Below, in pieces: positions 10,979-13,949 of a stretch of DNA of 53,655 bases; the first letter of the stretch is position 1, and each line of letters opens with the position of its first letter. The notes beneath the pieces are model-generated. The model was not told the origin of the DNA, made no database searches, and worked only from the letters and a program-made list of their open reading frames with translations. This DNA comes from Eubacteriales bacterium (lineage in GTDB: Bacteria > Bacillota > Clostridia > Oscillospirales > CAG-272): assembly GCA_045533435.1 (NCBI GenBank), contig JAZSHT010000068.1, positions 1 to 53,655 of the forward strand. Direction: 5' to 3'. A program made the position numbers and the translations under genes.

Positions 10979-11016
10979 CAAAAAACTCAGTCAAACCTAA
11001 GCGGTTCAACTGAGTT
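10979..11016 (-). terminator. rho-independent terminator after the four-helix-bundle/membrane gene pair
   Basis: AACTCAGT...ACTGAGTT stem with a U-tract on the minus strand. Confidence 0.6.
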
Positions 11017-11054
11017 CTAATTGTGAAAATTTGCATATTGCATTGATATCGAAT

Positions 11055-11501
11055 TCAAACGGGAGTGGCGTGGGATTCGCTTGGAGGGACATTGCTTGAA
11101 GTGTTCATTTTTATGTGTTTTGCGATAGATACGATTTCTAAAATAAAAATTACCAAATAATAAGCGTTCCATATATAGATGTTGACACCAAGTCCGCCTC
11201 CGATAAAAATCCCCATCGGTATAGCACCAAAAAGCAATATTGACAATATTGCATTGAAAATAGGATGGATTTTCATAAATACCTTTATTGCTGAAAGAAT
11301 GGCATCAATAAAATAGAAAATCAAACTGAAATAGGCAACTATCATTCCGAAAACCCAGAAAGCAAAAGATTTGCTGACACCTCCTTGTTCGCGGGCAGGC
11401 TCTGTTATCAAAGCAATAAATGAGCATATCATCAATCCAAAACTAATAAGACTTATGATTATTGCAAATATTGCTGCGCCTTTTGTAGATGTGTCTTTCA
11501 T
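11055..11501 (-). CDS. hypothetical membrane protein (4 TM)
   Basis: 148-aa hydrophobic ORF; RBS AAGGCGGTG; 20 nt downstream of the four-helix-bundle gene. Confidence 0.75.
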   Translation of the reverse strand: MKDTSTKGAAIFAIIISLISFGLMICSFIALITEPAREQGGVSKSFAFWVFGMIVAYFSLIFYFIDAILSAIKVFMKIHPIFNAILSILLFGAIPMGIFIGGGLGVNIYIWNAYYLVIFILEIVSIAKHIKMNTSSNVPPSESHATPV

Positions 11502-11521
11502 ATCCCCACCGCCTTTCTGGA

Positions 11522-11887
11522 TTATTTGTTACCTTGATTTGCATTTTGCTTCGCTGTTTGAATAGAACGGACAAGCAAGAATCTTATCGTCGAGCAATTT
11601 TTATCAAGAGATTTATATCTTGCCTCGTCTATATACTCACTTCTCCAAAGCATTTCAAGCCATTTACTTGTTTCATTTGTTTCCTTAAGTGCGATTTCAA
11701 GCTTTGCAATAAAATCGGCGCGACTATGAGCATATTTGCTTTCGGCAATATTTGCACAAATACTTGTCGCGCTTCTGCCGATTTGATTTGAGATAACGGT
11801 TTCGTGCTTTGAGCGTAACTCTTTTGTCAGCTTCAAAACTTCTACGGATAATTCCATAGACAGATTCCCGAGCTTATCCTCTTTCAT
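11522..11887 (-). CDS. four-helix-bundle protein (23S rRNA-IVS / S23 / Avd-like family, TIGR02436-like)
   Basis: Family signature QIGRSATSICANIAESKYAHSRADFIAKLEIALKETNETSKWL. Start is ATG 11887 (or GTG 11893) after AAGGTGG. Confidence 0.9.
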   Translation of the reverse strand: MKEDKLGNLSMELSVEVLKLTKELRSKHETVISNQIGRSATSICANIAESKYAHSRADFIAKLEIALKETNETSKWLEMLWRSEYIDEARYKSLDKNCSTIRFLLVRSIQTAKQNANQGNK

Positions 11888-11973
11888 AACCACACCACCT
11901 TTCTTAAACCAATTACATCATACTTTCGGTTAAAAATCAACTATCAATCAGTGAAACAATCAAACGACTACCG

Positions 11974-12164
11974 CTCCGTTTGCGCGAAGCGCAACATCGT
12001 TTACGCCGTAGGCGTAACATCATTTGCAACTTGTTGCAACATCATTTGAGGCGAAGCCTCAACCTCGTTCATTTGTGCCGCAAGCGGCAAAGATGTTCCC
12101 GCTTCGCTCGAAATGATGTTGCGTGTGCTATGCAAACGATGTTGTGCCTGACGGCACAAATGAA
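11974..12164. repeat. dyad-symmetric array of eight short hairpins with conserved CATCRT/AYGATG linkers
   Basis: Units TTGCGC-GAA-GCGCAA, TTACGCC-GTA-GGCGTAA, TTGCAAC-TT-GTTGCAA and TTGAGGC-GAA-GCCTCAA, each followed by CATCRT or CCTCGT. Then four units in the opposite orientation separated by AAGATG, ATGATG, ACGATG. Confidence 0.85.
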
Positions 12165-12197
12165 AAAATCCTGAAAGCATCGCTTTCAGGATTTTTT
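12163..12197 (-). terminator. terminator directly after tRNA-Gln
   Basis: AAAAAATCCTGAAAGC-ATC-GCTTTCAGGATTTTTT perfect inverted repeat. Confidence 0.85.
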
Positions 12198-12270
12198 GGC
12201 TGGGGATCTAGGGCTCGAACCCAGACATACAGAGTCAGAGTCTGCTGTGCTACCATTACACAAATCCCCA
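12197..12270 (-). tRNA. tRNA-Gln (anticodon CTG)
   Basis: Minus strand TGGGGAT...GCAGA-CT-CTG-AC-TCTGT...CTGGG-TTCGAGC-CCTAG-ATCCCCA-G-CCA; cloverleaf with encoded CCA. Confidence 0.97.
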
Positions 12271-12281
12271 ATGCGACAATG

Positions 12282-12310
12282 ATTATATCATAACAATAAG
12301 AAATTGTCAA
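12282..12310 (-). promoter_or_regulatory. consensus sigmaA promoter of tRNA-Gln
   Basis: TTGACA-17 nt-TATAAT with extended TG. Confidence 0.85.
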
Positions 12311-12437
12311 GAATTTTTTATAAATAATTTACCAACGAATAAATAATTTCAAGAATTCAAAATATTGCCAAGCTGTTTACAATCTGAATTTTGTGTGCTA
12401 TAATTGTATTAACGACATAACACAAGGAGAAATCGTT

Positions 12438-13949
12438 ATGAAAAAAATTATAAGTTCAGTATGTATTATACTTGCATTGATTATAGCATTATTTTCTTTT
12501 TCGTCTTGTCAACAATCTGACAAAAGTGATGAATCGGGAAGCTTATCGGATTCAGTAAGCGATAATCCTGACAATAAAACACAAGAGGAGCTTCTTCTTG
12601 AAATGAACGAGCTTGACAGAGCCGATGAATTAAGTAGGCTATCTGATATTGCCATGAGTGAAAAGCTTTCATATAAAACAACAATGATAGGAGAGATACA
12701 AACAACCTTACAGGGCGATGTTGTAATCGGCGAAATAAAAGGCGAGAGCGCATATTTATTTGGCAATACTGATGATTTTGTGTATCAAGAAAAGCTTGAA
12801 AGCACATCTAAGTATAAAGGCGAGGAAAGCGTTACGACCTTAATTGAAGGCTATCAAAATGGATATATGTATATTTACAATAAGAATGGTAGCATTACCA
12901 CCACCTTTAAATCTCCTATTACCAAGGATCAATATTTGCAACATATGAAGGATATGGAAGTGAAGACAGATTTTGAGCTTGATAGAGAAGGCTGCAAGGA
13001 AATTACTGCTCAAAGAAACGAAGACGGCACATGGACTATCACCTATGCTAAATTTACCGAGGAAAGATTAGAGCTTTTATTAAGTGAGCTAAAAAATCTT
13101 GATGAGCAGCTTGATGAATCGTATTTAATATCCGATGTGAAAATTGATATCAATATTATGAGCGATTTTGCTATAAAAAACGCCACAATGGAGTTTGAAT
13201 TCACAAAAAATAAAGACATAAACGGTAGTGCCACAACATTATCAGCGACCGAAAATACAGAAGGAAAAAACAAGCTTTACATAGAGATATCGTACGACTA
13301 TAACCCACTTACAGTAATGGAAGAAATAGATTTAGGTAGCATAAGATATAAGGAAGTGGAAGACCTCAGATATTACTACAACATCCAAAAGAAGCTTGAT
13401 GAGCTTAAAAATAGCGAAGAAGCGAAGGTCGTAATTGGAATTAAAAGCGATGTAGATTATAGAGGAATGGTTAGTGTAACGGAAGAAACAGACAACATTA
13501 CCTTTAAAAATAAAGACGGAAAGCTTGAATATGAAATTGAGTCAATGTCAAACAGAGGCAACTACAAGATTTTATATGCCAACGGCTACCAAGATCTTAT
13601 AGATGAAAGTGGCACTATGCAGCATGAAGCGGTAAGCGAAATGGAAGCAAGAGCATACCTTGAAAGCATGCTGGATGTGGCAGGATATAAAATCGATATT
13701 ATAAGAAATATTGAAAAGGTAAGTGACGGCGAATACATATTTACACTAAAGCCCGGCGATAGCTCGTACAAGGCTATTGTGGATGCGTACGGTGGACATG
13801 TCGAAGAAAGCAGCTCCACACTAACAATTAAATTGCTTAACGGCAAAATCGTGTACTACCATTACACATTTTACGCAGATGTATATTTAAGCACCGTTTC
13901 CTCATATATGGAAATGGATCAATCGGTTGTCTGCACATACGAATATTAA
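12438..13949 (+). CDS. hypothetical lipoprotein
   Basis: ATG 12438 after AAGGAG; MKKII signal with FSSC lipobox; Ser/Asp-rich linker; beta-rich body. Confidence 0.8.
   Translation: MKKIISSVCIILALIIALFSFSSCQQSDKSDESGSLSDSVSDNPDNKTQEELLLEMNELDRADELSRLSDIAMSEKLSYKTTMIGEIQTTLQGDVVIGEIKGESAYLFGNTDDFVYQEKLESTSKYKGEESVTTLIEGYQNGYMYIYNKNGSITTTFKSPITKDQYLQHMKDMEVKTDFELDREGCKEITAQRNEDGTWTITYAKFTEERLELLLSELKNLDEQLDESYLISDVKIDINIMSDFAIKNATMEFEFTKNKDINGSATTLSATENTEGKNKLYIEISYDYNPLTVMEEIDLGSIRYKEVEDLRYYYNIQKKLDELKNSEEAKVVIGIKSDVDYRGMVSVTEETDNITFKNKDGKLEYEIESMSNRGNYKILYANGYQDLIDESGTMQHEAVSEMEARAYLESMLDVAGYKIDIIRNIEKVSDGEYIFTLKPGDSSYKAIVDAYGGHVEESSSTLTIKLLNGKIVYYHYTFYADVYLSTVSSYMEMDQSVVCTYEY

Follow-up and report, generated by a model that had tools for sequence, protein, structure and literature searches.

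Among the systems described so far, the one closest to the element considered here is the intervening sequence (IVS) of 23S rRNA, known from Leptospira, Coxiella and Xanthomonas, among others. The open reading frame (ORF) of a classical IVS encodes a protein of the S23p family (Pfam PF05635) and sits in a stem that is cut by RNase III, and the whole unit has long been suspected of being selfish or mobile (PMC4990558). Relatives of S23p form a homopentameric toroid whose function is not known. One of them, Avd, is essential in diversity-generating retroelements (DGRs), and outside these elements the family has no known function (PMC4990558). Avd proteins are basic, which is consistent with nucleic-acid binding (PMC5758913). 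The present analysis concerns a stretch of 53,655 nucleotides from an Eubacteriales bacterium (GenBank assembly GCA_045533435.1, contig JAZSHT010000068.1), referred to as the window, and within it an array of eight short hairpins at 11980-12164, joined by words of the type CATCRT and located upstream of an S23p gene. Such arrays are a class of repeats coupled to S23p genes across Clostridia, with one word per S23p clade.

The window locus shares with the 23S rRNA IVSs a PF05635 ORF, an association with a stable RNA and inverted repeats beside the ORF. It differs from them in its location, which is after a tRNA gene and a terminator and not inside 23S rRNA, and in its layout, as the dyad stands with its two halves before the ORF and consists of hairpin-plus-word units instead of one plain stem. 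Enclosure of the ORF by inverted repeats, as in an IVS, is found at two loci of the window's own assembly (G000, 2.24 Mb, 81% complete; contigs C133 and C185) and at loci of Nostoc and Flavobacterium. The second group of described elements that must be considered comprises repetitive extragenic palindromic (REP) sequences and bacterial interspersed mosaic elements (BIMEs). REP sequences, known from enterobacteria and pseudomonads, are palindromes of conserved sequence and carry a conserved 5' tetranucleotide, the GTAG head. The arrays resemble REP/BIME in being extragenic and multi-copy, in forming mosaic clusters with constant linkers, in often following terminators, and in having few protein-linked copies against many orphan ones. 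They are unlike REP/BIME in that the palindromes vary while the linker is constant, and in that the neighbour is a four-helix-bundle protein without known enzyme activity. An earlier interpretation, made from the DNA letters by themselves (the sequence-only reading), named a REP/BIME-like element as one possibility for the window array. This holds for the likeness of the dispersed copies, which are numerous, extragenic and arranged in constant-linker mosaics (57 arrays in G000, for example at C2:600-1000), but it does not extend to membership: the palindrome is not conserved, there is no GTAG head, and PF01797, the domain of the Y1 transposase (RAYT), has 0 matches in G000, where the incomplete assembly leaves absence unproven.

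The window array is composed of eight short palindromic units with a period of 21-24 nt, arranged as two modules of four units each in opposite orientation (Table 1). The units of the tRNA-side half, module R, are joined by AAGATG, ATGATG and ACGATG, which represent the CATCRT-type word read on the - strand, and the word of each unit sits within AA..TT. All eight stems differ in sequence. Six of the hairpins are perfect, with 6-7 bp and loops of 2-4 nt, and two are imperfect. The tRNA-side half lies between the arms of a perfect 13-nt inverted repeat (12068-12080 / 12152-12164). The sequence-only reading had given the same unit coordinates, the same layout of four + and four inverted units, the linkers, the loop sequences and the 13-nt inverted repeat, all of which agree with the DNA. 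Its further statement that every stem pairs is true of six units but not of 12096-12112, which has two mismatches, or of 12119-12135, which has two G.T pairs.

In these units, pairing is retained while the sequence of the stem drifts. Across related and public genomes, a perfect stem of at least 6 bp was found in 143 of 278 inter-linker segments of the window linker family, compared with 34 of 5560 shuffled segments, and the 143 perfect units contain 50 distinct stem arms. On the CATCRT strand, the loop runs from G to A in 84 of the 143 units (for example GAA in 29 and GCA in 17), and none reads T..C, according to a tally of the loop list made for this work. Relatives of the window array differ from it by gain or loss of whole units, by changes in the loop, and by stem changes that stay paired. 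An alignment of 15 copies of module R (99-106 nt), taken from relatives and public metagenome-assembled genomes (MAGs), allowed pairing to be assessed column by column. The local hairpins are paired in 88.3% of cells, compared with 31-45% when the partners are slid by 1-3 columns. Changes on both sides affect 14 cells, part of them being whole-unit replacement and not stepwise compensation. Helix 4, corresponding to the unit 12142-12159, is paired in 97.1% of cells, and helix 3, corresponding to 12119-12135, in 95.2%, with changes on both sides at 3 pairs. The 14-pair closing stem formed by the terminal inverted repeat is paired in 95.5% of cells, and in 4 of the 15 copies each of its sides has gained one base in a coordinated manner. 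Consequently, there is support for the local hairpins as well as for the repeat that closes the module; module R was also found once without the other half. The compensated stem changes among homologues bear out the earlier view that the stems vary, the linker is constant and the structure is kept. In short, the words are conserved in sequence, whereas of the hairpins only the pairing is conserved.

Folding of positions 11960-12200 yields z-scores of -8.6 (RNA, + strand), -9.8 (RNA, - strand) and -8.1 (DNA, + strand), and none of 200 shuffles is as low. In the minimum free energy (MFE) structure of this segment the two halves pair with each other and the local hairpins are not formed. The comparison with Rfam that the sequence-only reading had suggested, run at E-values up to 10, returned no match to the array reaching the gathering score. 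Only two families overlap it at all, OrzO-P with 24 bits (gathering score 60) and STnc420 with 18 bits (gathering score 70), and their scores are partly owed to the terminator hairpin at its tRNA-side end. A cluster of intrinsic terminators, which would consist of G+C-rich hairpins each followed by a T-run, was also considered and rejected: a T-run follows 0 of the eight units, and a terminator scan of 11400-12500 listed one terminator-like site only, on the - strand (11982-11961). Metatranscriptome contigs from four runs, placed on 11000-13000, extend over the genes for the membrane protein and S23p, the tRNA and the right-hand gene. Over the array they provide only one 50-nt piece with 5 differences, and such contigs cannot show absence.

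Arrays built in the same way are abundant outside the window. When G000 was scanned for runs of three or more perfect hairpins, 57 arrays with 202 units were identified, compared with one array of 3 units in the block-shuffled genome. These arrays fall into several families by linker word, namely TATATCAT(CA), GYGATAT, (A)GGTAAAT(T), ATTCCATA, CTTCAT/CATCAT, GCTAAAT and GCGAAAT. Many of them lie at contig ends, and near-identical copies occur at five places. The window's own linker family is almost single-copy in G000 and is present in 13 of 41 related genomes, while the linker read backwards, used as a control, gives 0 matches in all genomes. In public MAGs, a true hairpin between two linkers was found in 36 of the 80 loci listed, and nearly all of those 36 carry titles of gut Clostridia, Eubacteriales, Oscillospiraceae, Acutalibacteraceae or Ruminococcus. 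The homologous arrays in relatives and public MAGs refute a one-off local duplication. A different distribution is seen for the AGGTAAATT arrays, which are all-or-none in the genus, with 38, 49 and 49 unit pairs in G000, G007 and G044 and 0 in the 38 other genomes; this is the pattern of a lineage-specific burst. A more tolerant array finder that allowed missing units returned 202 loci against 36 in the control, which was too noisy, and the gene-orientation table derived from it was not used.

Tabulation of neighbouring genes, which the sequence-only reading had envisaged, supplies the context that it missed: the array belongs to a PF05635/S23p gene, as its upstream element. G000 contains 4 PF05635 genes, all of them in repeats. 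Those on C33 and C36 have upstream hairpin-and-word arrays, and those at C133:9700-10260 and C185:7780-8300 are enclosed by inverted heptamer runs (CCCTATA-like and CCCCTGT/CCCCTAT-like). Heptamer runs of GGTCAGT, GGTTAGC and CCCCTGT are also seen in many other intergenic regions of this genome. Within the genus, 36 of 41 genomes have 1-7 S23p genes. With one locus viewed per genome, the usual order is a tRNA or other gene, a long hairpin, the dyad array, a ribosome-binding site or promoter, and the S23p gene, with a word that is specific to the locus. In several clades the array runs right up to the ribosome-binding site. For counting, a strict definition of a dyad array was adopted, requiring at least 5 exact copies of a 6-mer at 15-35-nt spacing in two inverted sets. 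Defined in this way, a dyad array lies upstream of S23p at 18 of 35 loci in the genus and at 7 of 29 in a class-wide sample, compared with 0 of 35 and 0 of 29 in the downstream controls and with 10 of 2021 G000 ORFs of at least 100 aa as the background. By eye, several more S23p loci qualify than by the strict definition. The number of exact words per half ranges from 2 to 6 and is commonly 4.

Many of these loci also follow a gene for a stable RNA. A tRNA or tmRNA on the same strand ends within 500 nt upstream of S23p in 15 of 33 cases in the genus and 7 of 29 in the class. Arrays abutting the 3' end of tmRNA were noted at two loci, L023 (G007:C228, 1144-1705) and L201. A general link between arrays and tRNA genes was rejected, as only 1 of 56 array loci of G000 lies within 150 nt after a tRNA (random mean 0.075); the tRNA link is confined to the S23p-linked arrays. 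At the orthologous site after tRNA-Gln, a CATCAT array is present in G000, a GTGATAT array in G002 and an array with TATATCATCA in G012, and there is none in G009 and G015. This variability of the site indicates that the array travels with the cassette and not with the site. In G009 (C11, L019), where the site has no array, the 3' end of tRNA-Gln is present a second time as a partial copy, at a distance of about 200 nt from the complete gene (approximately 1300-1330 and 1507-1580 of the locus), as would be left by an element integrated at the tRNA.

The relation between word and protein was examined on phylogenetic trees. On an IQ-TREE tree of 33 proteins, the 18 repeat labels require 18 changes (minimum 17; mean after shuffling 25.8; none of 200 shuffles as low). 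On a FastTree tree of 61 proteins, in which other bacterial families are included, 14 labels require 19 changes (minimum 13; mean after shuffling 38.8; again none of 200 as low). S23p proteins with the same word cluster on the tree across bacterial families, and neighbouring branches have similar words, such as CATCAT, ACATCAC, CTTCAT and ACTTCAC, or GCTAAAT and GGTAAAT. Because kin share labels, the tree result describes a stable coupling of gene and array and is not by itself a sign of recognition.

These observations are best accommodated by a reading in which the array is a cis repeat element of the S23p cassette, the words are the ligand and the hairpins are neutral spacers; its chances of being right and of being wrong are judged to be roughly equal. 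The repeated word would be the specific part, and its most likely reader, on single-stranded DNA or RNA, would be the oligomer of the S23p protein encoded next door. The hairpins would act as sequence-neutral spacers; by folding away they would place successive words next to one another. Binding of S23p would then insulate or auto-regulate the cassette, and arrays without an adjacent S23p gene would be non-autonomous relatives, as REP/BIME are to RAYT. The conjunction of these parts, in which the word is the ligand, the hairpins are neutral and the orphan arrays are non-autonomous, is likewise regarded as an evenly balanced proposition. The isoelectric point (pI) of the window S23p, 9.1, counts in its favour alongside the basic Avd proteins, and so do the G-to-A polarity of the loops and the word runs that flank S23p genes in Nostoc and Flavobacterium (see below). 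As far as mechanism is concerned, the multivalent protein-binding platform proposed in the sequence-only reading is still the best guess. An analogy, confined to mechanism, is provided by TRAP, whose ring binds (G/U)AG repeats in the trp leader at spacings of 2-3 nt with free spacer sequence. Similarly, a ring-shaped oligomer would here read a regularly spaced short word on a single strand. The two systems differ in that the folds are unrelated, the spacers of the arrays are hairpins of 13-18 nt, and binding by S23p is a proposal.

Several findings weigh against this reading. Simple co-inheritance of a gene with its adjoining DNA would also lead to agreement between tree and labels. In G000, with its 38 AGGTAAATT unit pairs, the S23p nearest to the sole GGTAAAT-linked S23p is 48% identical to it, and in G044, with 49 such pairs, the nearest S23p carries GCTAAAT words. 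In these incomplete assemblies, dispersed arrays therefore need no matching resident protein. Only 2-3 of the 57 G000 arrays stand beside an S23p gene. At the window locus the array lies upstream of the promoter-like site, and thus it is not obviously part of the mRNA, and since the position of the array differs between clades, a single mode of action, on DNA or on RNA, is not evident. The halves of the window array point towards each other, while in most other clades they point apart, and the count of words per half does not single out a pentamer. Finally, in the relative G007 (C315), the same array and promoter stand directly before the membrane-protein gene, and the S23p ORF is absent.

A wider form of the proposal is possible, yet on balance doubtful. 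It holds that S23p proteins in general are sequence-specific readers of repeated words on single-stranded nucleic acid, that each clade co-evolves with its word, and that the Clostridial arrays, the runs beside S23p genes of cyanobacteria and Bacteroidota that resemble short tandemly repeated repetitive (STRR) sequences, and the repeats of the 23S rRNA IVSs are three forms of one partnership. Ten S23p genes outside Clostridia were examined, in one genome each of Nostoc (loci L229-L237) and Flavobacterium (loci L228-L235). All of them, 6 of 6 in Nostoc and 4 of 4 in Flavobacterium, are flanked on both sides by inverted tandem words of 6-8 nt without hairpins. These words resemble the STRR heptamers of cyanobacteria. 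The likeness to STRR consists in the inverted short-word runs beside all six Nostoc S23p genes and in the heptamer runs of G000; the difference from the hairpin arrays is that STRR words are contiguous and have no hairpin spacers. On this comparison of sequences, a general link between STRR repeats and S23p genes may exist.

An explanation without any protein reader, considered unlikely, treats the arrays as selfish dispersed repeats resembling REP/BIME or miniature inverted-repeat transposable elements (MITEs), beside which S23p genes land or by which they are carried. Such repeats would spread through an enzyme of the host or one missing from the assembly, or through slippage and recombination at identical words, and their stems would be kept perfect by template switching, known as quasipalindrome correction. 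This agrees with the number of arrays in G000, with their frequent position at contig ends and the near-identical copies at five places, with the all-or-none occurrence of the AGGTAAATT arrays (three genomes with them, 38 without), and with an orthologous site that holds different families or none in sister species. The terminal inverted repeats of module R, its coordinated insertions and its one occurrence without the other half point in the same direction, as do the whole units that come and go between relatives. However, neither a Y1 transposase nor a reverse transcriptase or TnpB was found in the 81% complete G000; the searches for RVT_1 (retron/DGR) and TnpB were aimed at these two classes of element, which were both set aside. 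No target-site duplication was seen, and in a search for an empty site with 2.2 kb around the operon-internal array on C97, almost no DNA matches were obtained in 40 genus genomes, the species being too diverged. A selfish origin also leaves unexplained both the roughly hundred-fold enrichment of arrays directly before, but never after, the genes of one small family and the way in which the word follows the S23p clade across bacterial families.

The array could also function in RNA, as a processing or insulating element similar to the stem of a 23S rRNA IVS, which is quite improbable. In this case, transcription reading through from the tRNA gene would yield an RNA with paired halves or folded units. 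Cleavage of this RNA by RNase III, or a block that it poses to exonucleases and polymerase, would separate the stable RNA from the S23p message. The MFE folds, which pair the two halves into one long imperfect stem (z of -8.6 to -9.8), fit this description, and so do the position of S23p genes after same-strand tRNA or tmRNA genes and the arrays that reach the ribosome-binding site in several clades. In true IVSs, the inverted repeats on either side of the S23p ORF are a substrate of RNase III (PMC4990558). A weak hint comes from the single mismatches of stems on the S23p-sense strand, where G.T occurs 14 times, A.C 5 times and other mismatches 17 times; the two G.T pairs of the window array, by contrast, are found on the strand complementary to the S23p message. 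Two features of the locus argue against an RNA element, namely the promoter-like site between array and gene and the strong terminator between tRNA and array. Moreover, the two halves are built of units with unlike sequences, so that the long stem is rich in mismatches, and what is conserved are the local hairpins. RNase III requires longer stems than those of 5-8 bp hairpins.

That the array encodes guide RNAs of a CRISPR-like or TIGR-Tas-like system has next to no chance of being correct: the regular interspacing of constant and variable parts, the TIGR stem-loop arrays that also lack repeat conservation (bioRxiv 10.64898/2026.09.09.750476) and the PF05635 genes reported inside cas loci (PMC3936711) would favour it, but the variable parts are self-complementary hairpins of 13-18 nt with 3-4-nt loops, which at a period of 21-24 nt leave no room for a spacer, and the Nop domain PF01798 has 0 matches in G000. 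Membership in either class was rejected separately. CRISPR arrays have near-identical direct repeats of about 23-50 nt, between which lie unique spacers that are not palindromic. As a CRISPR array the locus fails because its constant part measures 6-10 nt, its variable part is a palindrome of 13-18 nt and its orientation flips at the centre; the sequence-only reading had likewise called the array the reverse of a CRISPR. None of the six neighbouring ORFs compared with Pfam is Cas-like, and no genome-wide search for cas genes was made. TIGR units contain two 14-nt spacer intervals with box C/D and are served by a Nop-domain Tas protein (bioRxiv 10.64898/2026.09.09.750476), none of which occurs here; the units of the window array are too short for two spacers of about 14 nt together with box C/D. 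The likeness lies in arrays whose units are delimited by hairpins and whose repeats are little conserved, next to or inside a gene for a small protein that binds nucleic acids (bioRxiv 10.64898/2026.09.09.750476).

The arrays join known kinds of element, that is, IVS-type S23p cassettes and BIME-like mosaics, and are not categorically new. A full-text literature search found neither arrays of hairpins with a constant linker nor repeats tied to PF05635 outside rRNA; in PMC10910872 (Altae-Tran 2023), a legend on CRISPR-linked genes includes '23S rRNA IVP' and non-CRISPR interspaced arrays are described, and the supplement of that paper might show a related array. The arrays represent a kind of repeat that is missed by repeat finders, CRISPR finders and Rfam, since the constant part is only 6-10 nt and the rest is conserved as pairing. 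In one gut genus they fill dozens of intergenic regions and probably break assemblies. S23p genes are common in bacteria, and the array provides a concrete handle on what they do: each S23p clade is tied to a specific and easily synthesised word, which turns the function of S23p into a question for binding and reporter assays. If the words are indeed read by S23p, a protein family without a function for three decades would acquire one, the heptamer repeats of cyanobacteria may be explained by the same logic, and the partnership of S23p and repeats would seed genomes with orphan arrays on a scope comparable to RAYT-REP.

Table 1. Coordinates of the array and of the features flanking it in the window.
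Feature	Position	Strand	Description
25-nt direct repeat, copy 2	11494-11518	-	before the 148-aa membrane-protein gene (11055-11501)
S23p ('23S rRNA intervening sequence protein') gene	11522-11887	-	PF05635, four-helix bundle, Avd-like
25-nt direct repeat, copy 1	11880-11904	-	ribosome-binding site and start of the S23p gene
Promoter-like site of the S23p gene	11912-11940	-	-35 at 11940-11935, 17-nt spacer, -10 at 11917-11912
Gene-side half-array	11980-12068	+	four perfect hairpins of 6-7 bp (11980-11994, 12001-12017, 12024-12039, 12046-12062), followed in order by CATCGT, CATCAT, CATCAT and CCTCGT
tRNA-side half-array (module R)	12068-12164	-	four hairpin units with CATCRT-type words on the - strand, bounded by the 13-nt inverted repeat
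Central palindromic unit	12076-12089	-	5' arm shared with the 13-nt terminal inverted repeat
Hairpin unit	12096-12112	-	two mismatches at the centre of the stem; found in this imperfect form in other genomes too
Hairpin unit	12119-12135	-	imperfect here, with two G.T on + (A.C on -); perfect in relatives
Hairpin unit	12142-12159	-	7-bp perfect stem, GTCA loop on the - strand; best conserved unit of the family
Terminator-like hairpin	12163-12197		16-nt perfect arms, A-run on one side and T-run on the other
tRNA-Gln (anticodon CTG)	12197-12270	-	ARAGORN; Rfam tRNA 56.6 bits; transcribed towards the array

The array fills the gap between the terminator of tRNA-Gln and the promoter of the S23p gene, the start of which faces it. 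The terminator-like hairpin abuts both the 3' end of the tRNA and the last partial linker of the array, and related arrays have a hairpin of different sequence in its place. The promoter-like site was read from the sequence and is a putative one that the consensus promoter scan did not list; it is conserved in the relatives G004 and G007, where the -10 element is TATAAT in place of the TGTAAT of the window. Its position between array and gene places the array upstream of the promoter at this locus. The window S23p matches PF05635 with an E-value of 2.4e-27 (95.7 bits, cut-off 33.8), its closest solved structure is PDB 2RLD (E-value 1.3e-24, five chains), and the RxxxSxxxNxxE motif is present. 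The start codon selected by the ORF tool is the GTG at 11893, and the ATG at 11887 follows a ribosome-binding site. Between 10500 and 13500 only the tRNA passes the Rfam gathering threshold, the neighbours being tRNA-Gln and protein genes. No match to the locus was found in the plasmid collection, and the phage collection gave one weak match of 74%, limited to part of the S23p gene.

The 25-nt direct repeats place the same leader before the S23p gene and before the membrane-protein gene, and together with the arrangement in G007 this looks like gain or loss of the S23p ORF by recombination at the duplicated leader. Such repeats of ribosome-binding site and start flank the S23p ORF in only 2 of 42 loci, the other being L163, and are therefore not general. 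Elsewhere in G000, a mosaic of about 400 nt at C2:600-1100 combines at least 4 linker families and heptamer runs and has no long ORF. A different repeat of about 60 nt, composed of three hairpins with G/C-run stems, occurs in at least 6 near-identical copies (C13:2488, C35:18599, C94:8372, C137:1598, C147:5618 and C169:110), several of them at contig ends, and is probably the end of an unassembled multi-copy element.

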